Shown: positions 20,232 through 59,678 of the stretch, piece by piece
Numbering within the stretch: position 1 is the first letter of the stretch
How the letters are laid out: the number at the start of each line of letters is the position of its first letter
NCBI GenBank assembly: GCA_963848295.1
Contig: CAWKDB010000010.1
Location: 1,600,001-1,664,000, forward strand
Direction of reading: 5' to 3'
Origin: an uncultured delta proteobacterium
GTDB lineage: Bacteria; Myxococcota_A; Polyangia; Haliangiales; Haliangiaceae
Length of the DNA stretch: 64,000 bases
Made by a program: the position numbers and the translations under genes
Notes under the pieces: model-generated
The model's database searches: none
The model's input: only the letters and a program-made list of their open reading frames with translations
Told to the model about the DNA's origin: nothing

Positions 20232-21557
20232 ATGCGTGCCGCCGTGCTGCTCTGCATCCTCTCGGCCTGTCACCCCCAGACCATGTCGGCCCAGCCCGAT
20301 GCCCACCCGGGCGACGGCTCGAATGCGGATGCGACGCCGGCTGTAGGATTTGTCCACGTCGGCAGTGGGGCGATCGTGGACGGGGCCGACGCGCCGCTCC
20401 GTCTCCGATGCGTCAACCTGGGAGGCTGGCTCGAGCCGGAAGGCTATCTCTTCGGTACGGCGCTGCTCGGGCTGGTCCGGAGCCCGAGCGAGATCCGCGC
20501 GAACCTCGTGACGCTCGTCGGTCAAACCGCGGCGGATGCGTTCTGGCAGCAATGGGAGGCGGCGTATGTCACCGAGGCCGACTTCATGCGGATCGCGGCG
20601 CTCGGGTTCAATTGTGTGAGGCTTCCGGTCAATGCCAAACGGATCGCGAGCGTCGCCGGGACGACCGTCGCGCTCGACAGCGTCGAGCTCGCGCCAGTCG
20701 ATCACGCGGTCGCCTGGGGGGCCGCGCATGGCGTCTATGTCGTGCTCGATCTACACGCGACGTTCGGCGCTCAGAACTTCGCGCCGACGAGCAGCGATGT
20801 GCCGAGCACCGATACGTTTCCGCAGCTGTGGGTCGGTCCCAACGGCGAGTATCCGAGCGACGTCGCCGCGGCGAACCAGGCGCTGACCGTCCAGCTATGG
20901 AGCCTGCTCGCGACGCGCTATGCCGACGCGACCTCGATCGCGGGCTTCGATCTCTTGAACGAGCCCGAGCTGAACCACATGGGCAAGCCGAGCCAGAGCC
21001 CGGTGCCACAGACCGACCTGATCGCGTTCTATCAAGCGGTGATCTCCGCGATCCGCACGGTCGATCCGCACCACATGCTCTTCGTCGAAGGCGATGCGCT
21101 CGCGACCGACTTCACGCCATTCACGGCCGCTCTCGATCCGAACTCGACGTACGAGCTCCACGCGTACCAGACGGCCACGGCCTGGGTAGACCCGACCGCG
21201 ACGCCGTCGCAGCTGGATCCGTACGTCGCGCTGTCGACCGCGCAACATCTGCCGCTGTGGCTGGGCGAGTTCGGCGAGAACACGGCGGCGTGGCAACAGG
21301 AGATGGTGGCGCTCGTCGAGGCACACGACACCGGCTGGGCGGTGTGGCCGTGGAAGCGCCGCGAGACGTTCGCGACGCATCCCGTGGTCGAGACGATCGT
21401 GCTCCCGGCGACGTGGGAGCCCGTGTTCGACTATCTGGTCGGCTCGACCTCGACGGCGCCGGCGAACCCCGCGCAGGCGATGACCGACCTACTCGCAGCA
21501 CTCCCGCTCGCCAGTTGCACCGAAGACGCGTCGTTCGCGGCTACGCTGGTCCAATGA
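20232..21557 (+). CDS. GH5 glycoside hydrolase, lipoprotein
   Basis: Lipobox 'LSAC'; 'VNLGGWL', 'GFNCVRLP', 'VLDLHA', 'DLLNEP', 'WLGEFG'. Confidence 0.9.
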
Positions 21558-23929
21558 CCTCCGATCGGCTTGCCTGGCGTTTGCGAACCGCGGCGTTCGC
21601 CTGTCTGGCGCTCGCGGCGTGCATCACGGACGGACTCGTGCCGTGCGGCGACGAGCTCTGCCCGATCGGCTCGGTGTGCCTGGAGGGCCTATGCACGACG
21701 AGCGATCAGGCGACCGCGTGTGTTGGCGAGCCCGAAGGGGCGACGTGCTCGACGCCCACGACCACCGGGTACTGCGTCTCCGGAGGTTGTCGCGCGTCGG
21801 TGTGCGGCGACGGCAAGCTCGAGTACGGCGAGGTATGCGACGACGGCAACCAGACCTCCGGCGACGGTTGCTCGGCGCGGTGCGACTCCAACGAGACGTG
21901 CGGAAACAACGTCGTCGACTATGCGGTCGGCGAGCAATGCGACGACGGCAGCTACGGGCTGTCCGGAGATGGCTGCTCGTCGACTTGCAAGCTCGAGCTC
22001 GCGGTGTGGCGCGAGCAGTCCCCGCTCGCGTCGCCGTACGCGCGTGCGAGTCAGGGGATGGCGTACGACAGCGTGCGCGATCGCGTCGTCGTGTTCGGCG
22101 GCGTGCGCGGCGTGACCGGCCAGAACGATACGTGGGAGTGGGACGGGCTCAACTGGATCTTGCGCACGCCGCCGACCTCGCCCAGCCCGCGCGCATCGCC
22201 GGCGACGGCGTACGACTCGGTGCATCATCGCACCGTCATCTTCGGTGGCGAGTTCGGCCCGACGCTGTACAACGACACCTGGCTGTGGGACGGAACGACG
22301 TGGACGCAGGCCGCGACCTCGACCGCGCCATCGCCGCGCACCGACACCGCGGTCGCGTTCGACAAAGCGCGCGGCAGGCTCGTGCTGTTCGGCGGCCGAG
22401 ACAGCAGCGGCATCGTCGGCGACCTCTGGGAGTGGGATGGCGCGGCCTGGCGACAGATCGCGTTCACCGGCGGGCCCCCGGCGCGTCATCTCCACGTGCT
22501 CGCGTACGACGAGGTCCGCGCACGAGTCGTGCTCGTCGGCGGAACGGACGGCACGACCAACTTCACCGACACCTGGGAATGGGATGGCACGACGTGGACG
22601 CAACGCACGCCGGCCACGACCATGCCTGCGGTTCGCATCGCCGCCAGCGCGACCTATGACTCGGATCGCCACGTCGTGGTCGTGTACAGCGGAACGTCGG
22701 GGTCGACGATGCCGCCCGACACCGACACGTGGGAGTGGAGCGGCACCGACTGGGCTCGTCGCACCGCGACCGCCCCGAAACCGCCTGCCGTGTTACTCGG
22801 CGGCGCGGCGTTCGATGCCGTCGCACATGCCACGATCATCTTCGGCGGAAGCACCGCGATCGCCGATAACGCCGAGACGTGGGCGTTGAACGCCAGCGGG
22901 TGGCAAGAGCTCGATCACGCGTCGCCGTTGCCGCGAATCAACGCCGGATTCGTCGACGAGCCGACGCGCGGGTTCGTGCTGATGTTCGGCGGTCTGGACG
23001 GGCTGACTGCGCTGAACGACACCTGGGAATGGGATGGCACGAACTGGCTCCAGCGGGTGCCGGCGACATCGCCCTCGCCGCGCAGGCACGTCTCGCTCGC
23101 GTACGATGCGTCGCGCGATCGCGTCGTGATGTTCGGTGGCCTACAAAACTCGACTGCGCTCGGCGACACCTGGCAATGGGACGGCAGCGTGTGGACGCAG
23201 CTGACCGTGGCCGCGTCACCGTCGCCGCGTGCCGGGCATCGGCTCGTCTACGACGCAGCGCACGAGCGCACGATCCTCTTCGGCGGCACCGACGCCACGA
23301 ACACCGTGCTCGCCGACACGTGGATGTTCGATGGCACGACGTGGACACAGCTGACGCCGGCGCACAGCCCACCGCCGACCACGGAGTTCTCGTTCACGTA
23401 CGATCCCGATCGGCAGGTCGCCGTGCTGTGGAAGGATCCGACGACCGGCATCTGGCTGTGGGATGGAACCGACTGGACCGAGCACGACAACTCGAATCTG
23501 CCCTCGGACGCGGTCCTCGCGTATCACGCGAAGCGCCACAGCATGATCGCGTTCGGTGGCGACACCCCGGGCGCGACGCTCGTCGGCGAGACCTGGGAAT
23601 CGTTCGACGACACGACGTGGACGCTCCAGACCCCGGCGGCGTCGCCACCCGAACGCGTCGATCACGGGTTGGCGTACGACGCCGCACGCGGTCAGCTCTT
23701 GCTGTACGGAGGATTCACGTCGCAGGAAACCGAGGTCGGGGATACGTGGACCTATGGCCTCGAGTCCGGCACGCCGCCGGACCAGTGTGAGGGCGTCGAC
23801 ACCGATGGCGATGGCCTTGTCGGCTGCGCCGATCCCGACTGCGCCGCGCGGTGCGCGTACTGCGGCGATGGGACGTGCGAGCTCGTCGAAGACTATCTGC
23901 TGTGTCCGATCGACTGTGCGCCGCCCTAG
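21554..23929 (+). CDS. Lipoprotein with myxobacterial Cys-rich repeats and 12 Kelch-like repeats
   Basis: Lipobox 'LAAC'; '[18 protein letters not shown]'; twelve 'FGG...DTWEWDG..W'-type repeats; C-terminal '[15 protein letters not shown]'. ATGA overlap with the GH5 gene. Confidence 0.85.
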
Positions 23930-23984: not shown

Positions 23985-24000
23985 TGGCATGCGGCCTGCT
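23985..24000 (+). promoter_or_regulatory. Putative sigma54 -24/-12 promoter
   Basis: TGGCATGCGGCCTGCT, with 13 nt between the GC and ATG 24013. Confidence 0.6.
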
Positions 24001-24012
24001 TTACCAAACCCG

Positions 24013-25230
24013 ATGAGCCCGAGGTCGTTCATCCTGGCTGCCCTGCTCGGATGCGGGCACCCGGGCGCCGGTTCCCCCGACACCCCGGCGGCCGACACCC
24101 CGGCGGCCGACACGCGGAGCAGCGACGCCGGCCTCACGACGCTGGACTGCGTCGCGAACGATCCCGCGTGTCCGGAGCTCGCGATCATGGGCGACTCGCC
24201 GTCGGGCGAAGCGTTCACCGGCTTCGCCGATCCGACGATCCGGCGTGACGGGGCTCGACTGTGGCTCGCCTACTCGTCCGCTCACACCACGCCGGCCGAC
24301 GTGATCGACGTCCGCCTCGCGCACAGCGACGACGAGGGGGCGACCTGGCAGTTCGACACCGTGCTGTGGCCCACCGTGCAGGTCACGAATCCGATCACGA
24401 ACACCGCGAACTATACGTCGAGCGAGGTCGCGAACCTCGCGACCGACGGCGCCGGGACCTGGTACGGCATCCGCGCGACGTACCTGGTCGATCCGGCGAA
24501 GGCGCAGTACGCGCAACCCGGGACCAGCGGGATGACGATCACGACGGCTTCTTCGCCGTCGGGGCTCGCGACCGCGCCGTCGGCGCTGCTCGGCAGCACG
24601 TTGACCAACGCGAAGATGAACCCCGCCGTCGATCTCCACGCGCTGTCGCCCGCTCTCGCCCACTGCGATCTGTTCAACGAGCCCGCGCTGATCGTACGCG
24701 GTGGCACGCTCTATCTGCTCGCGCAGTGCCTGTCGTACAACGGCCTGACGTACGATCCGAGCAGCGACTTCTACGCCGTGTTCGCGACGCAGCCGAGCGG
24801 CGCACCGGCCACCTGGACCTGGCGCTACGCCGGCGCGTTCGGCACGCACGCAGACGCCGAGGCGCTCGACGGGCATACGTACTGGGTGCAGCTCGATATC
24901 GCGACCGCGCTCGACGGCACGCTGCTCGCGATCGTGACTCCCAGCGAGTTCGACACCGCGGATGTCGTCGACATCCACTTCGGCTGCCGCGCGATCGAGC
25001 TCGCCGCGCTCGATCCTCCGGTGCTCGCCCGCGATGCCACGGGTGCGCCGGTCCTGCGCGCGTCGGTCACCGCGTCGGATCTCGCGCAACCGGACGGCTA
25101 CGGCCCGGGAGCATGCAGCTACGATCCGAGCTCGACTACCGGCATCCTGCTCGTGCGTCGCACCGGCCTCGTGATCGGCGAGAGCATCGGTGTGTTCACG
25201 CTGCACCGCACGGGTGTCCTCGCGCCGTGA
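24013..25230 (+). CDS. Lipoprotein, probable beta-propeller (Asp-box/sialidase-like)
   Basis: Lipobox 'LLGC'; 'FADPTI'; Asp-box 'SDDEGATW'; 'NEPAL'. Confidence 0.6.
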   Translation: MSPRSFILAALLGCGHPGAGSPDTPAADTPAADTRSSDAGLTTLDCVANDPACPELAIMGDSPSGEAFTGFADPTIRRDGARLWLAYSSAHTTPADVIDVRLAHSDDEGATWQFDTVLWPTVQVTNPITNTANYTSSEVANLATDGAGTWYGIRATYLVDPAKAQYAQPGTSGMTITTASSPSGLATAPSALLGSTLTNAKMNPAVDLHALSPALAHCDLFNEPALIVRGGTLYLLAQCLSYNGLTYDPSSDFYAVFATQPSGAPATWTWRYAGAFGTHADAEALDGHTYWVQLDIATALDGTLLAIVTPSEFDTADVVDIHFGCRAIELAALDPPVLARDATGAPVLRASVTASDLAQPDGYGPGACSYDPSSTTGILLVRRTGLVIGESIGVFTLHRTGVLAP

Positions 25231-25305
25231 GCGCGTGTCTCGATTTCCACCACAGCACTGAGGTTCGAGCCGGGCGATGTCGCAGCGGTCGAGTAAGCTG
25301 GCCGC

Positions 25306-28300
25306 GTGTCCCTCGTCCAGGCTCTGACCACCGCACAGCTGCGCGCGCGCGCCGGCCGCGGGTTCGAGCGCGGCGAGCGCTATTGGCGGCAAGGCCGAGT
25401 CAGCTCGTATGTCTCGCGCCCGGATCTCGTCACCGGGATCGTTCATGGCAGCGAGGCCTACCACGTGCGGTTGCTCGCGCGCGGCAAGCAGCTCGAGGCG
25501 GACTGCACGTGCCCGGTCGGCGTGCGCGGTGAGATGTGCAAGCACGCGGTCGCGCTCGCGCTCCACCATCTCGCGGTTGGCGGAGCCGCGAATCGCGTCG
25601 TGGCCGCCACCGCGAGCGCCTTCGCGACCCGCGCCGAGCTCGACGCCTGGGCGAGCGCGCATCGCGTCGAGTTCGAGCTCGACGTCACCGCCGAGGTGAT
25701 CGCGCCCGAGCTCGAGCCATTCCATGCGAGCGCGTGGCACCTGCGGCGCGAGCTCGCGCTCGTCCGGTTGCGCGACGTCGGATCGATCGAAGGTACGAGC
25801 CGGATGTTCGGCGACGCGGCGTTGTGCCAGCGCGCCGCGGAGGTCGTGGCGCATCGGCTCGAGCAGACCGCCGCCGACATCGCGACCGGCATCGCCGAGG
25901 AGCGCGAGCGTGCATCGACGTCGGGGGCTCGCCCCCCGACATCAGCATCGCCGGATGGCGCTGCGGTTAGATCGACCGGTGATGCGCTGCGGACGGCGCT
26001 CGTCGAGTTGCGCCGCCGCCTGCGCGCGAAGGCCGTGCCGCGATCGCGAGCCGCGCGCGCGACCGGTGCGTGGAGCTTCGACCGCGAAGGGCTCGCGATC
26101 GAATGGCGCGAGCCGATCAAGCTGCGCGGTCCGAGCTACACGATCGTGCCGGTCGTCGCGCGGCTCCGGCTCGAGCCGACCCCGGCCACGGCATGCGCGT
26201 GCCGGCTGCCGGCATGTACGCACGCGATCGCGCTGATCGACGCGACGCTCGATCGCCTCGAGGCGGACGATCCCGCGGCGCGCGAGGCCGCGCTCGAGCT
26301 CGGCCGTCCGCCGTGGCAGCGCGCGCTCGCCGCGCTTGCCGCCGACGAGGCGACCACGAAGCCGCTGGCTCGCGTCGAAGTATGGTGGGAGATCGATCAA
26401 GAGCTCGGCAACCTCGCGGTCACACCCGTCGTCAAGCGCGAGCTCAAGAAGGGTGGGATGTCGGCGGGCACTCGGATCAGCGCGGTGCGCCTGCTGCGCG
26501 ACCACGGCACCACGCTGTCCGATCGCGACCGCGAGATCGCGGCCCACATCGACAGTTGGCGGGCCGGACCCGCGACGAGCTATCCGGTCGGTGCCTTCGC
26601 GGCGTTGATCGGCCACCCGCGCGTGATGTTCGCCGGCGATCCGATCGCGGTGCGCCGGTGCCCGCTCGGCTTCACCGCCGTCGATCTAACCGCATCGCCA
26701 TCCGGCGATGCTGCCGTCCGGGGGCAAGCCCCGGCCGGCGTGGCCGGCGGCGACATCCGGCTCGAGCCCTCGGTCGATGGCGCACGATTCTCGCCGCGCC
26801 TGCTCGCGCCGCTGCTCGAGACGTTTCCGCCGAACGAGCCGTTGATCGTGCTCGAGCCCGAGCACGGGCGGTGCACGATGATCGACGTCGGGGAGCACGC
26901 GCGCCGCGTGTGGGCGGTCCTGGCGCGCCACGGCGATACGTTCCCGCCCGAGGCACACGCGCAGTTGTTCGACCGCCTCGCGAAGCTCGAGCACAAGCTG
27001 CCGGTCGGCGTGCCGACGTCGTTGCTCGGCGACGAGATCTTCGAGCCGACGACCGTCGTGCTCCGGTTGAGACTGCAACCCGATACCTCGCTCGAGCTCG
27101 AGCCGTTCGTCCGCGCTGCCGACGGCGCGCCGCTCTATCCTGCCGGCGTCGGCCCGCGCGACGTCATGATCGCACGCGACGGCAAGCGCAGCTACGTCCG
27201 CCGCGAGCTCGGGATCGAACGGGCGAAGGTCGACGCCGCGCTCGCCGCGTTGCCGCTCGCGACCGCTGAAGCGGGCCCGCCGAACTGCTACCGGATCGAG
27301 GAGCCGGACGCGGCGCTCACCGTGGTCGCCGCGGTGCAGACGCTCCCGGCTGGCGTCGTCGCGGAGTGGGTCGACGCGCGCGCCCGGATCGTGGCATCCG
27401 CGGGCTTGCCGCAGTTGCGCGTCGCGATCGAGGCGAAGCGCGATTGGTTCGGGATGACCGGCGGCGTCACGGTCGAAGCCGGCCGGATCGAGCTCGCGGT
27501 GTTGCTCGATGCAGCCCGCCGGCAGCAGCGGTTCGTCCGGCTCGACGAGCACCGCTGGGTCGAGCTCGCGGCGGCGTTGCGCACGCGGCTCGGCGAGCTC
27601 GCGGACCGCACGTTCGAGGCGACCGGTGGGCAGCTCGAGGTTTCGGTCGCGGCGGTGCCGGCGGTGCGCGCGCTCGCCGACGAAGGCGCGCAGGTCGACT
27701 CGGCCGCCACGTGGCAGCAGCTCGCGACCAAGCTGGCCGCGGCGACGAAGCTGCGCCCTCGCCCGCCGAAGGCGCTGAACGCGACGCTGCGGCCGTATCA
27801 GATCGAAGGTCACGCGTGGCTGTCGCGGCTCGCCGCATGGGGCGCCGGCGCGTGCCTCGCCGATGACATGGGCCTGGGCAAGACCGTGCAGGCGATCGCG
27901 CTGCTCGTCGACCGCGCGGCCGCAGGCCCTGCGCTCGTGCTCGCACCGACCTCGGTCAGCTTGAACTGGCTCGACGAGCTGCGCCGGTTCGCGCCGACGC
28001 TGAACCCGATCGTCTACGGCGAGGCGAGCGACCGGATCGCGACGCTCGCGACGCTCGGCAAGCACGACGTGTTGATCGCGAGCTACGGCCTGATGACCCG
28101 CGACATCGAGCCGCTCGCTCGCATCAAGTTCGCGACGCTGGTCGCCGACGAGGCCCAGGCGCTGAAGAACCCGCGGACCGAGCGCTCCCGGGCGGCGCGC
28201 GCGATCGATGCCGAGTTCCGCGTCGCGCTGTCCGGCACGCCGCTCGAGAATCATCTCGGCGAGCTGTGGTCGCTGTTCTCGATCGCGTTTCCCGGCTTGC

Positions 28301-29172
28301 TCGGGAGCTGGGAGCAGTTTCGCTCGCGGTTCGCCGTGCCGATCGAGCGCAACAACAACCCCGAGGCGCGCGCCGCGCTCGCGCACTTGATCCGCCCGTT
28401 CCTGCTCCGCCGCACGAAGGCCGAGGTCGCGCCCGACCTGCCGCCGCGCACCGAGATCGGCGTGCCGATCGCGCTGTCGACCGAGGAGCGAGAGCTGTAC
28501 GAAGATGCTCGGCTCGCCGCGGTCGCCCACCTCGACAAGCTCGCGAAGCGAGGTGACCGCGACGAACGCCGCCGGTTCCAAGTGCTCGCGGCGTTGACTC
28601 GCCTGCGGCTGCTCGCGTCGCATCCGAAGCTCTACGACGCGACGTCGGCGGTGAGCTCGTCGAAGATGCAGCGCTTGCTCGAGCTCGTCGAGGAGCTGCG
28701 CGCCGAAGGCCATCGCACGCTCGTGTTCAGCCAGTTCACGTCACACCTCGCGCTCGTGCGCGAAGAGCTCGAACGCGCAGGCGTCTCGGTGCTGTACCTC
28801 GATGGCGCGACCCCCACGGCGACGCGCCGCACGTTGATCGAGCGGTTCCAGGCGGGCGAGGCGACCGCGTTCCTGATCTCGCTCAAGGCCGGCGGCACCG
28901 GCATCAACTTGACCGGCGCGGACAACGTGATCCATCTCGATCCTTGGTGGAATCCCGCGGTCGAGGATCAAGCGACCGATCGCGCGCATCGCATCGGCCA
29001 GGACAAGCCGGTCACGGTCTATCGGCTGATCGCCCGTGGCACGGTCGAGGAGAAGATCCTCGCGATGCACGCGACGAAGCGCGCCCTCGTCGCCGGCGTG
29101 CTCGCAGGCACCGATGCCGCCGCACGGCTCACGACCGGCGACCTCGTCGACCTGATCGCGGCGCGAGCGTAG
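25306..29172 (+). CDS. SWIM zinc-finger and SNF2-family helicase
   Basis: SWIM motifs 'CTCP..MCKH' and 'CACRLPACTH'; 'LADDMGLGKT', 'DEAQ', 'SGTPLEN', 'VFSQF', 'DPWWNPAVEDQATDRAHRIGQ'. Confidence 0.95.
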   Translation: MSLVQALTTAQLRARAGRGFERGERYWRQGRVSSYVSRPDLVTGIVHGSEAYHVRLLARGKQLEADCTCPVGVRGEMCKHAVALALHHLAVGGAANRVVAATASAFATRAELDAWASAHRVEFELDVTAEVIAPELEPFHASAWHLRRELALVRLRDVGSIEGTSRMFGDAALCQRAAEVVAHRLEQTAADIATGIAEERERASTSGARPPTSASPDGAAVRSTGDALRTALVELRRRLRAKAVPRSRAARATGAWSFDREGLAIEWREPIKLRGPSYTIVPVVARLRLEPTPATACACRLPACTHAIALIDATLDRLEADDPAAREAALELGRPPWQRALAALAADEATTKPLARVEVWWEIDQELGNLAVTPVVKRELKKGGMSAGTRISAVRLLRDHGTTLSDRDREIAAHIDSWRAGPATSYPVGAFAALIGHPRVMFAGDPIAVRRCPLGFTAVDLTASPSGDAAVRGQAPAGVAGGDIRLEPSVDGARFSPRLLAPLLETFPPNEPLIVLEPEHGRCTMIDVGEHARRVWAVLARHGDTFPPEAHAQLFDRLAKLEHKLPVGVPTSLLGDEIFEPTTVVLRLRLQPDTSLELEPFVRAADGAPLYPAGVGPRDVMIARDGKRSYVRRELGIERAKVDAALAALPLATAEAGPPNCYRIEEPDAALTVVAAVQTLPAGVVAEWVDARARIVASAGLPQLRVAIEAKRDWFGMTGGVTVEAGRIELAVLLDAARRQQRFVRLDEHRWVELAAALRTRLGELADRTFEATGGQLEVSVAAVPAVRALADEGAQVDSAATWQQLATKLAAATKLRPRPPKALNATLRPYQIEGHAWLSRLAAWGAGACLADDMGLGKTVQAIALLVDRAAAGPALVLAPTSVSLNWLDELRRFAPTLNPIVYGEASDRIATLATLGKHDVLIASYGLMTRDIEPLARIKFATLVADEAQALKNPRTERSRAARAIDAEFRVALSGTPLENHLGELWSLFSIAFPGLLGSWEQFRSRFAVPIERNNNPEARAALAHLIRPFLLRRTKAEVAPDLPPRTEIGVPIALSTEERELYEDARLAAVAHLDKLAKRGDRDERRRFQVLAALTRLRLLASHPKLYDATSAVSSSKMQRLLELVEELRAEGHRTLVFSQFTSHLALVREELERAGVSVLYLDGATPTATRRTLIERFQAGEATAFLISLKAGGTGINLTGADNVIHLDPWWNPAVEDQATDRAHRIGQDKPVTVYRLIARGTVEEKILAMHATKRALVAGVLAGTDAAARLTTGDLVDLIAARA
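25920..25976 (-). repeat. 57-bp palindromic repeat, copy A (reverse orientation, in frame within the SNF2 gene)
   Basis: Reverse complement matches copy B at 50/57 nt without gaps (hand alignment). Confidence 0.85.
26680..26736 (+). repeat. 57-bp palindromic repeat, copy B (in frame within the SNF2 gene)
   Basis: gtcgatctaaccGCATCGCCatccGGCGATGCtgccgtCCGGGGgcaagCCCCGGcc forms two hairpins and encodes VDLTASPSGDAAVRGQAPA. Confidence 0.85.
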
Positions 29173-29185
29173 TGCGCGCGCTCGG

Positions 29186-30421
29186 TCAATCCGCGTCAGC
29201 GCCAAGCGCTGCTCCCGAGACGACGCCCGCGTCCTCACTTGCGCTGAGCGACGTTCGGACTCCAGGGAGCGAAGCTCGGCCTGTGACCGATGCGGTTGGA
29301 TCGATGATCGCGAGCACGCGGGCGGCCGGCACGCGACGAGTGAACGGCACGACCGGCGCACCGGCGGGTAACTGCATGGCATCCGCGGCGCGGCTCGCGT
29401 CGATGCAGAGGATCACGCGCACGTTCGCCGCGGCGTAGAGCTCGAGCTTGCGAGCGAGATAATTCGGCGTCCAGAACCCGACGATCTCGATCGACCAGCG
29501 CGTGTCATCGCGCTCGAGCACGAGATCGGGAAACGCAAACGAGCTCGCGACCGCGATCGGCGGTGGCTCGCTCACCACGGTCCACTGCGGCGCGTGCTTC
29601 GCGAGATCGGCGGCGAGTCGCTGCTCGACCGCGCGCCGCACTCCGCCCCTTGCATCGTAGCCCGGCAGCATGATCGGCGGCGCGATCCGGACGATCGTGG
29701 GGCTCGGCGACGGCGGAAGGTCGCAGCGCGCGATCAGCTCGAACGACTCGCAAGCGGCGAGCGCGGGGACGAGCGAGCCGAGCGCGCGGCCATACACCGC
29801 GGTGCGATGAAACAGCGCCAGTGGTCCCGACACGACGACCTCGACCATGTCGCCGCTCGCATGCGCACTCGCGATCAGACCGCGCCTGATCGCGCCGCGG
29901 ACGAGCGACCGCGAGCCGTCCGGCACGCGCAAGCGGAGCTCGTGACAGCGCAGCAGACAGCGTTGGATGATCGCGAGGTTCGCAGCGGCCGCGACGGCGA
30001 GCTCCGAGGGCCGCCCGAGCGGCAGCGAGATCGTACGCTCGTCCCACAAGTCGGCCCACATCAGCTGCTCGAAGTCCGCGTCCGACACGACGAGCTGCTC
30101 GGCTGCCGCCCGGATCCGGGTCGCGCGCTCGCGTTCGTCGAGCGCGAGCCGGCCGAGCAGGCGACTACGCATCTCGGGGGAGACCAGATCGTGGTGCACG
30201 CGGCCTCCGAGCAGCCGGCGCAGCGCGTGGACGATCGCGGCACGGCGCGCCGGCGAGCCGACCACCGGGATCGCGGCGATCGACTCGATCCATTCGCGCC
30301 ACGGCCGGCCGACCGCGCCGACAAATGCGTCCACGAGCTCGGCGATCCACGGCACGTCGGTGTCGTCGAGCAACTCGAGCGTCGCATCGCCGCCGTGATG
30401 GCGAACCGGCAGCGACCTCAC
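29186..30421 (-). CDS. DUF790 / Bax1-like PD-(D/E)xK endonuclease
   Basis: 'SGPLALFHRTAVYGRAL' and 'FPDLVL...IEIVGFWTPNYLARKL'. Overlaps the upstream helicase stop (GTGA). Confidence 0.85.
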   Translation of the reverse strand: MRSLPVRHHGGDATLELLDDTDVPWIAELVDAFVGAVGRPWREWIESIAAIPVVGSPARRAAIVHALRRLLGGRVHHDLVSPEMRSRLLGRLALDERERATRIRAAAEQLVVSDADFEQLMWADLWDERTISLPLGRPSELAVAAAANLAIIQRCLLRCHELRLRVPDGSRSLVRGAIRRGLIASAHASGDMVEVVVSGPLALFHRTAVYGRALGSLVPALAACESFELIARCDLPPSPSPTIVRIAPPIMLPGYDARGGVRRAVEQRLAADLAKHAPQWTVVSEPPPIAVASSFAFPDLVLERDDTRWSIEIVGFWTPNYLARKLELYAAANVRVILCIDASRAADAMQLPAGAPVVPFTRRVPAARVLAIIDPTASVTGRASLPGVRTSLSASEDAGVVSGAALGADAD

Positions 30422-58179: not shown

Positions 58180-58195
58180 CGGCAACCGCCTTGCA
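58180..58195 (+). promoter_or_regulatory. Putative sigma54 -24/-12 promoter
   Basis: CGGCAACCGCCTTGCA, with 14 nt between the GC and ATG 58209. Confidence 0.65.
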
Positions 58196-58208
58196 CTCAC
58201 GGTGTGCG

Positions 58209-59678
58209 ATGCGAAACCTGCTCGCGCTCGTCGCCGTCAGTTGTGGGTCCAGTCCGGCGCGTCCGGCCGAGCCGATCGCGCCAAGGCGCATTGTCGTGAT
58301 CGCGCCGACGGCACCGAAGGTCACGCCATTACCTGCGGTCGCCGCGGTGCCGAGCGCGAATCCGCCGTACATGGCGGGCGTGCGATCGGTGGTGCTGGTC
58401 AAGAACACCGCGTTGCGCAAGCAGCCGCGGCTCGACGCCGCGCTCGTCGGCATCATCCGCAAGGGCACTCACGCCGGTGTGCAGCAGGCGATCCTGGCGG
58501 GCGCCGATTGCCCGACGACCGACGGCGCCGAGGGCCGATGGATCGAGCTCGCGCCGCGCGGCTGGACCTGCGAGACCGCGGTCGAGCCGAGCCGCGACGC
58601 GCCGACCGTCGCGCCCGTCGCTTCACTCGATGACGACGGCTCGGATCCGGATCCGATCAAAGGCGTCTACGGCATGGTCCGCGGCGACACCGAAGCGTTC
58701 GCGAGTCGCGACGATGCCGCTGCCGACACGAATGGCCGGACGCTCGCCGGTTCGAACACGGTGCGCGCGGCCGGGGTGGTCGCGGTCGACGACCGCCGGT
58801 TCTGGCGCACGACCCAAGGCGAGCTGATCGACGAGAGCTCGATCATCCAGATCTCGCCGTCGCGGTTCAAGGGCGTCGCGATCGCGGACCCGACCGAGAT
58901 GCCCGCGTGGGTCCGCGCGCATCGCGATCCGTACAAGCCGGCGAGCACGCGCAACGCGCCGTCGCCGCGCGCGAAGGTCATCGGCTCGCTCGCGCCGCGC
59001 ACGGTCGTGACGATCCTCGAGACCTCGGATGACGGCCGGTTCGTCCGTGTCGATCTCACCGCACCGCCATTCGGCGGCGCTGCCGGCCGGGGACAAGCCC
59101 CGTCCGTCGGGGACGGCGCGTGGCTCGAGCGCGCCGACCTGCGGATCGCGACGGTCGCAGAGCCGCCGCCCGGGACGCGCGCCGACGAGAAATGGTTCGA
59201 CATCGATCGCGACGCGCAGATCCTCGTCGCCTACGAGGGCACGCGTCCGGTCTATGCGACGCTCGTGTCGACCGGCAAGTATCAACACGAGACGCCGACC
59301 AGCATCGCGCGGATCGCGTCGAAGCACGAGACCGCGGTGATGACGAGCGATGCGAGCAAGGGCTCGGTGTACTCGGTCGCGGACGTACCGTGGACGATGT
59401 ACTACGACCGCGACTTCGCGCTGCACACGTCGTACTGGCACGACGGCTTCGGCAGCCCGCGCAGCCACGGTTGCGTCAACCTCGCGCCGCGCGACGCTCG
59501 CCTGCTCTATCGCTGGTCGTCGCCAGACGTGCCGGCCGGATGGACCACGGTCTACGGCGACGCCGACAACCCGGGCTCGCTCGTCCGCGTGCGTTCGGCC
59601 GCGGCGCCCGACCCCGCGTTCCGCGGCTACGCGCGCGCGATGCACGAGCGCGACCAGCAAGTCGCGACCGCGCCGTGA
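58209..59678 (+). CDS. L,D-transpeptidase (YkuD) lipoprotein with SH3-like segments
   Basis: Lipobox 'AVSC'; 'LVSTGK', 'ALHTSYWHDGFG..RSHGCVNL'. Confidence 0.9.
   Translation: MRNLLALVAVSCGSSPARPAEPIAPRRIVVIAPTAPKVTPLPAVAAVPSANPPYMAGVRSVVLVKNTALRKQPRLDAALVGIIRKGTHAGVQQAILAGADCPTTDGAEGRWIELAPRGWTCETAVEPSRDAPTVAPVASLDDDGSDPDPIKGVYGMVRGDTEAFASRDDAAADTNGRTLAGSNTVRAAGVVAVDDRRFWRTTQGELIDESSIIQISPSRFKGVAIADPTEMPAWVRAHRDPYKPASTRNAPSPRAKVIGSLAPRTVVTILETSDDGRFVRVDLTAPPFGGAAGRGQAPSVGDGAWLERADLRIATVAEPPPGTRADEKWFDIDRDAQILVAYEGTRPVYATLVSTGKYQHETPTSIARIASKHETAVMTSDASKGSVYSVADVPWTMYYDRDFALHTSYWHDGFGSPRSHGCVNLAPRDARLLYRWSSPDVPAGWTTVYGDADNPGSLVRVRSAAAPDPAFRGYARAMHERDQQVATAP
59049..59105 (+). repeat. 57-bp palindromic repeat, copy C (in frame within the L,D-transpeptidase gene)
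   Basis: 49/57 nt identical to copy B without gaps; encodes VDLTAPPFGGAAGRGQAPS. Confidence 0.85.

Follow-up and report, generated by a model that had tools for sequence, protein, structure and literature searches.

A mobile 57-base two-hairpin element carried in frame within predicted genes of an uncultured soil myxobacterium

The window analysed here, a stretch of 64,000 nucleotides from the genome of an uncultured soil myxobacterium (G000; 7.78 Mb, 68% GC, 85% complete), contains two unrelated genes that together carry three copies of a 57-base element (Table 1). Copies A and B are read in frame as residues 205-224 and 459-477 of a SNF2-family helicase, whose SNF2 and Helicase_C domains occupy residues 831-1231. 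An earlier annotation made without database searches (hereafter the sequence-only reading) had reported that A and B agree, ungapped, at 50 of 57 positions inside the same open reading frame, that a third copy sits in an unrelated gene, and which peptides A and B encode. Re-alignment bore out the match, the peptides are as given, and copy C, 49/57 identical to B, occupies an in-frame position in the gene of a YkuD L,D-transpeptidase. Two stem-loops per copy and covariation at the pairs 16-29, 40-54 and 38-56 had also been described. Both hairpins indeed fold (DNA z-scores of -2.85 to -3.62 for the four strands folded) and all three pairs are present in the aligned copies A, B and C. Elsewhere in the window a long open reading frame (20408-23929) is built of 147-150-base repeats, and we take it to be beta-propeller-like. 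One soil sequencing run contained 36% of the words of window positions 24000-30000, and no RNA run was among those listed.

Table 1. Features of the window and loci of a sister repeat family in the source genome
Feature	Position	Strand	Remarks
SNF2-family helicase (host gene 1), 1288 aa	25306..29172	+	copies A and B in N-terminal half
Copy A	25915..25976	-	57-nt unit 25920-25976 and RTCGA-like closing repeat 25915-25919; frame R2
Copy A hairpins	hairpin 1 25945-25964; hairpin 2 25919-25941	-	predicted by folding
Copy B	26680..26741	+	57-nt unit 26680-26736 and diverged closing repeat 26737-26741; frame F0
Copy B hairpins	hairpin 1 26692-26711; hairpin 2 26715-26737	+	predicted by folding
YkuD L,D-transpeptidase with SH3-like region (host gene 2)	58191..59678	+	start may be 58296
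Copy C	59049..59110	+	57-nt unit 59049-59105 and closing repeat; frame F0
Copy C hairpins	hairpin 1 59061-59080; hairpin 2 59084-59106	+	predicted by folding
Sister family loci (G000)	C10:73704, C10:3927610, C2:158775, C2:41662 and 15 more		

The helicase was compared with its orthologues at 24 loci (one row from the unpublished G010). Gaps at both sites had been anticipated, and the segment of site A is found in 0 of 21 orthologues covering it and that of site B in 0 of 22. The closest orthologue (G104), from a relative of about 90% identity, lacks both copies and shows gaps of 17 residues at site A and 19 at site B, corresponding to 51 nt and exactly 57 nt. An AlphaFold model of residues 100-580 (21 sequences, mean pLDDT 88) agrees with the earlier expectation that the inserts fall in loops, since both are predicted as loops of lower confidence: copy A would join two long helices and copy B two strands (pLDDT below 50). 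In two relatives (L013, L014) the same loop at site B holds an insert of some 20 residues that is unrelated to the element.

Further genomic copies had been predicted as well, and an iterated ungapped profile search of the source genome called 144 of them at a cut-off of 25 bits, compared with none of at least 18 bits in the reversed genome, which excludes chance. They occupy 124 loci, namely 115 singles and 9 arrays of 2-5 copies, with an array spacing of exactly 57 bases in 20 of 20 cases and a mean pairwise identity among copies of 69%. Each element consists, in this order, of RTCGA, a 7-base tail, hairpin 1 (positions 13-20 paired with 25-32), a 3-base linker, hairpin 2 (36-44 paired with 50-58) and a second TCGA-like motif. 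Hairpin 2 reaches position 58 and an RTCGA-like repeat borders the unit, which refines the boundaries drawn before. Among 58 aligned copies pairing is kept in 86.9% of cells. Two-sided changes occur in 90 cells against 29.3 in shuffles, none of 500 of which reached this value, and a maximum of 35 in slid controls, an excess inflated by the kinship of the copies. Stem 2 exists in 14 different perfectly paired versions, and therefore the fold has been kept by many copy lineages. An Rfam search gave no family above the gathering threshold and three chance-level matches below 19 bits. An origin from a tRNA T-loop is ruled out, since there is no pairing partner and positions 6-10 vary.

Decayed copies without part of hairpin 2 are also found (e.g., C10:2576945, C10:4297766 and C2:809256), and the orthologous remnants of such copies are mostly multiples of three in length (18, 21, 24, 27, 42, 48). 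A sister 57-base family with 34 copies at 19 loci has hairpin 1 in common with the main family and shows a three-base GNA-type loop in it, another hairpin 2 and a TTGTCG-type junction; 11 of its 19 loci lie in genes, and 10 of these 11 are read in reverse. The same genome harbours two intergenic repeat families that often form inverted pairs (75 matches at 46 loci and 49 at 33 loci), along with a multi-copy coding element and three further families: one paired (17-18 loci), one of hairpins (16 loci) and one resembling a microsatellite (18 loci).

Genes were called with a purpose-made dicodon gene caller (6412 genes, 86% coding). The 124 loci are divided into 96 within genes, 7 across a gene end and 21 between genes, so the in-gene share (77%) is close to that of random intervals (2401 of 3000, 80%) and genes are not avoided. 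The value of 96 is probably too low, because five "intergenic" loci checked by eye each proved to have an open frame of coding character. At 71 of the 96 in-gene loci the best score of either flank falls in the frame of the gene; 15 of the 96 lie within 30 residues of the predicted start and may be untranslated. All six frames are used (F0 54, R0 22, R2 11, F2 7, F1 1, R1 1), and the codon phases of the copies (79/19/2%) follow those of TCGA in the genes of this genome (80/18/2%), so that phase use is explained by the codon context of the target. This use of six frames and both orientations in proportion to target context upholds the earlier claim that nucleic-acid structure and not peptide is conserved. 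Beyond target context goes the excess of F0 over R0 (expected approximately 1:1, p 0.0003). The element had been described as free of stops in either frame used; some copies carry stops in frames that they do not use (F0 at 9 of 70 loci, R0 at 16 of the 102 loci not using it). The R0 peptide is richer in Arg and Trp, and Ala, Gly and Pro make up 53% of the F0 peptide. Judged from these reading frames, each in-gene copy would add a 19-residue loop to the predicted protein, and the copies are tolerated in frame within predicted genes.

The copies reside in 92 host genes. A Pfam scan of 61 hosts, i.e. the SNF2 gene and 60 from the list of 68 with both flanks in frame, found a family in 52. Among the predicted products of the host genes are ArgRS, Era, an EF-G paralogue, PlsX, RecG, UvrD, two Lhr helicases and SbcD, and also products of sirohaem genes, penicillin-binding proteins, kinases and a PKS. 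Of 14 hosts tested in the 85% complete genome nine, among them ArgRS, Era, SbcD and CinA, have a single match; EF-G, PlsX, RecG, UvrD and FtsI have paralogues. The sole ArgRS found (C11:700301-702295, L121) contains five tandem copies, about 95 residues, inside its catalytic domain, and the sole Era found carries a copy. Compared with solved structures the insert appears as an uninterrupted gap, 20 residues long for PlsX and 19 residues long for SUMT, and the element splits the alignments of Era and ArgRS; a single-sequence fold of PlsX (pLDDT 42.7) was left out of the analysis.

The element might also be a module selected by the host, for mRNA structure or as a peptide motif, that spread for a function. 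Its retention in the sole ArgRS and Era and also at 21 sites shared with relatives, and the favoured forward orientation, would fit this explanation. We nevertheless regard it as quite improbable, since all six frames and either strand serve in the proportions expected from target context, the 92 hosts are unrelated, half of the genus lacks the element, its loops fit DNA and not RNA motifs (see below) and Rfam holds no family above threshold.

The comparison with relatives shows that the element is real and mobile. Among their 114 element loci, 75 have an orthologous site in the source genome (at least 83% identity, mean flank identity 90%), and these sites are exactly 57 bases shorter in 35 cases, filled in 21 and otherwise different in 19, gain and loss being unpolarised. 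Insertions of relatives at sites that are coding in the source genome read through in 19 of 20 cases. Copies at shared sites differ by 9.1% overall, with 3.8% in stem 1 compared with 11.1% in stem 2. Paralogous empty sites within the source genome are represented by one weak case. Copy number and the exact 57-base empty sites thus support the main part of the earlier proposal, a mobile palindrome that adds loops of about 19 residues; the term MITE-like does not apply to it.

An ordinary MITE would be moved by a DDE transposase with a target duplication of 2-5 bases, and the direct repeat at both ends and the palindromic target are reminiscent of it. The family consensus, however, has no terminal inverted repeats. 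Positions 2 and 59 vary independently (p 0.39), and A occurs at position 5 in 215 of 226 copies against 159 of 226 at position 62, unlike duplicated bases; hence a 4-5-base duplication is apparently absent. A 2-base CG duplication may occur. This explanation is largely refuted and we consider it very improbable.

The empty allele has the form N-T-C/G-G-W and reads TCGA in 13 of 35 cases. Where the two ends differ, it agrees with the left one at position 1 (7:2) and with the right one at positions 2-4 (11:3), and position 5 is split 5:4. For this reason most events resemble an insertion on the reverse strand 3' of WCGA, the terminal TCGA of the insert being the element's own. The base at position 1 varies with that at position 58 (p 5e-9), and the base at position 59 with the subfamily (p 4e-6), both p-values being overstated by kinship of the copies, and the cut point appears not to be fixed. 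Within 5 bases of empty junctions divergence is 21-29% in comparison with about 10% further out, perhaps owing to variable loops or to imprecise insertion. As for insertion overwriting target bases, 13 of 35 stand against 473 of 526 for far flanks, a difference that is weaker against local divergence. No tetranucleotide guide was found at the foot of either hairpin, and in a guide search only 35-59 covaried (p 0.004), more weakly than subfamily markers.

With a covariance model, matches were obtained in 46 of the 90 other genus genomes, 1 to more than 120 copies in each (tallies including the unpublished G010 and G057); in other genera 7 of 56 genomes were matched, each by one weak match. A GTDB-wide pattern search returned 31 stretches, 30 of them in MAGs titled Kofleriaceae (Myxococcota) and one in a MAG titled Deltaproteobacteria, and there were no matches among the viral contigs searched. 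The dominant element lengths across the genus are 51, 54, 57 and 60. Among the 149 matches listed of 240 in five relatives (one partial match excluded), 118 have a net length of 3n; listed matches measure 54 (43 matches) and 51 (14) in G049, 57 in G083, G008 and G093, and 60 in G069 (18 of 20). In these variants of relatives hairpin 1 is constant and hairpin 2 is swapped or shortened. Two arrays, G008 C204:8965-9143 and G049 C189:9220-9474, deviate from the 3n rule with periods of 58 and 50.

Both hairpins carry a DNA-fold signature. Read on the reverse strand, the hairpin 1 loop and its closing pair conform to cGNABg in 127 of 144 copies (255 of 283 when copies are pooled) and to the RNA-type GNRA in 1, and the forward-strand loop fits UNCG or GNRA in 0 of 144. 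At positions 45-50 the sequence gCNNG(c/t) is matched by 101 of 144 copies. Both motifs were reportedly named as stable DNA tetraloops by Nakano et al. 2002. Loops of the GNA and cGAACg types occur in the sister family, on the same strand as in the main family; stable GNA loops are described in PMC3201870. G-T wobbles favour the reverse strand mildly (108 vs 70). The tetraloop fit points to the reverse strand as the single-stranded form, and we infer that this strand would be the DNA substrate.

We therefore propose, with a probability of about one half, that a non-coding two-hairpin element at TCGA-like sites moves as folded single-stranded DNA of the reverse strand by means of an HUH (Y1/TnpA-type) enzyme encoded elsewhere. 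First, the reverse strand would fold as DNA and the enzyme would bind the near-invariant hairpin 1. Second, the RTCGA end of the element would pair with a genomic (R)TCGW site, and strand exchange would take place within these 4-5 overlapping bases, on the folding strand mostly 3' of WCGA, and without true duplication. Third, in a genome that is 86% coding, variants of 3n length with frames rich in Ala, Gly and Pro would survive in loops and linkers, and slippage across the terminal repeats could produce tandem arrays and also delete copies. Two subterminal hairpins that fold on one strand are a feature of IS200/IS605 derivatives. TnpA and TnpA-REP bind single-stranded hairpins of 20-25 bases strand-specifically via loops and bulges (PMC6006769, PMC8266576), and because the anatomy of the element resembles these substrates, an HUH enzyme may act in trans. 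This assignment, made from anatomy, has in our estimation an even chance of being right.

The source genome contains nine Y1 genes, all with an HUH-like motif and seven with a downstream Tyr motif in frame. Y1 genes occur in 88 of 91 genus genomes, including every element-rich one, and are equally common in element-free genomes. A RAYT/IS200-like gene flanked by the element, as envisaged by the sequence-only reading, was not found at any Y1 locus scanned. The loci of Y1, Y2 and RT genes scanned (34, 54 and 29) contained no copy or recognisable ends (best 23.9 bits), flanks and ends of the Y1 genes showed no relation to the ends of the element, and the copy nearest to any Y1 gene of the source genome is 2.0 kb away. 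Six of the nine Y1 genes (L001-L009) have in common a structured leader of about 200 bases that is unrelated to the element. Solo Y1 TnpA-like genes form a large family with up to 37 members per genome and a basic Gly-rich N-terminus. An autonomous parent with the same ends was found neither among 12 left-half matches in the source genome, which look like decayed copies, nor among the 124 metagenome stretches listed. Clustering of the gene neighbours of copies yielded kinases, regulators and sigma factors and no mobile enzyme. IS200/IS605 elements use the lagging-strand template; for the copies no replichore bias was detected (C10: 20 plus/28 minus, then 12/18).

Two other candidate mobilisers were rejected. 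DUF559 has 0 matches in the 85% complete source genome. IS91/ISCR-type Y2 genes are present in 38 of 91 genomes and have no ends in common with the element, and none was found in the element-rich G104, G053, G063, G049, G083 or G069. Two divergently oriented Y2 genes of this type lie at C10:52169-55762 (L066).

Enzyme-free copying or copying by host repair also has to be considered: stalled replication or repair would switch template onto a stable hairpin copy via RTCGA microhomology, or would capture a single-stranded segment released when the stretch between the terminal repeats loops out. The variable cross-over within the overlap, element-type bases at both ends, the raised divergence near junctions and the exact array spacing all speak for it, as do the abundance of TCGA (102,157 sites) and the lack of a cognate transposase among the genes found. 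Left unexplained, however, are the sequence of hairpin 1 and the one-strand loop, which are kept across the 51-60-base families while hairpin 2 is freely replaced, and near-identical copies show no carry-over of donor flanks. On balance we consider this route rather doubtful, though the most serious of the alternatives.

A retro-element parasite would arise if intragenic copies were transcribed and a retron-type RT made a reverse-strand hairpin cDNA that was captured by microhomology, in the manner of the msDNA-related repeats of Nannocystis. In forward copies the strand that folds as DNA would correspond to the cDNA, the surplus of F0 relative to R0 points in the same direction, and the source genome has three full RT matches. 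But no RT gene was found in the element-rich relatives G104 and G053 (89-90% complete), there is no similarity to the element near seven RT loci, and the orientation bias can also be attributed to stops and to Arg and Trp in the reverse peptide. This route is unlikely.

Returning to the folded single-strand proposal, a wider version can be formulated, which is possible but tentative: the family would belong to a genus-wide superfamily of minimal single-stranded DNA replicators, whose lengths are held to whole codons (51, 54, 57, 60), which colonise coding DNA at random rate, enter by short end-to-target pairing without a fixed cut via an undescribed pathway and generate new protein loops.

Several known systems behave similarly. 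Rickettsia palindromic elements (RPEs; about 105-150 bp, 44 copies, just under half of them in ORFs) are palindromic non-coding repeats fused in frame into unrelated housekeeping genes, with mobiliser unknown (PMC10969869). In-frame insertion in unrelated genes, absence from orthologues and, in predicted structure at two sites only, placement in loops are RPE-like features of the present family, which in contrast has 144 copies, 77% of loci in genes, both orientations and arrays in a free-living 7.8-Mb GC-rich genome. RPEs and SDRs proper appear to be set apart by sequence and host range (the pattern search hit only MAGs labelled Kofleriaceae and one labelled Deltaproteobacteria). SDRs are 21-27 nt long and used in frame. 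SDR5 of Nostocaceae is likewise a very small mobile repeat with precise insertion into an over-represented palindrome (HIP1; here TCGA) (PMC4390886, PMC5861425), but phylum, sequence and target differ and our element has 57 bases and two hairpins.

REP/BIME/REPIN repeats with TnpA-REP (RAYT) resemble it in small hairpins, strand-specific single-stranded DNA features and tandem groups, and some intragenic GTAG/CGTC REPs in ORFs add 20-30 aa (PMC3733652, PMC6006769, PMC8266576). In contrast, the 57-base element lacks a GTAG/CGTC foot 5' of the stem, inverted dimers and a REPtron, and it is not extragenic; CGTC overlaps the 3' end of hairpin 2 in the consensus, with none 5' of either stem on either strand. 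Non-autonomous derivatives of IS200/IS605 are termed PATE. Two subterminal hairpins are common to both, and insertion without duplication beside a tetranucleotide that also ends the element may be (PMC6006769), whereas in the present family the cut point is variable and neither a guide, a replichore bias nor a parent IS was found. The mycobacterial MIRU and the BRE of Betaproteobacteria are GC-rich units of 40-100 bp, with terminal tetranucleotide repeats in MIRU and with tandem arrays and empty sites, and some BRE lie in coding sequence (PMC3184786, PMC3110155). They are mainly intergenic; our family, in contrast, enters genes at random rate and keeps 3n lengths.

The behaviour is thus already known from RPE/SDR-type repeats, and the family itself appears to be separate. 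Its distinctive points are the lack of gene avoidance, the codon-stepped lengths across the genus and the one-strand DNA-fold signature. A literature search covering the main text of openly accessible articles yielded no description of it. The family can help to show how coding repeats of the RPE/SDR type move, since it offers, unlike most of them, many empty sites resolved to the nucleotide, variants whose lengths differ by multiples of three, a strand-specific DNA-fold signature and few candidate enzymes, and therefore mobility is testable with oligonucleotides. If the tentative superfamily were real, it would represent a standing source of novel loops in proteins, reaching 95 residues in the sole ArgRS. 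The 92 genes of one genome also form a natural insertion-scanning data set of where proteins tolerate at least 19 extra residues. Clustered insertions occur in both neighbouring sirohaem-synthesis genes, in both Lhr helicases (one of them twice) and twice in an acyltransferase (L088, L089, L107, L123, L091).
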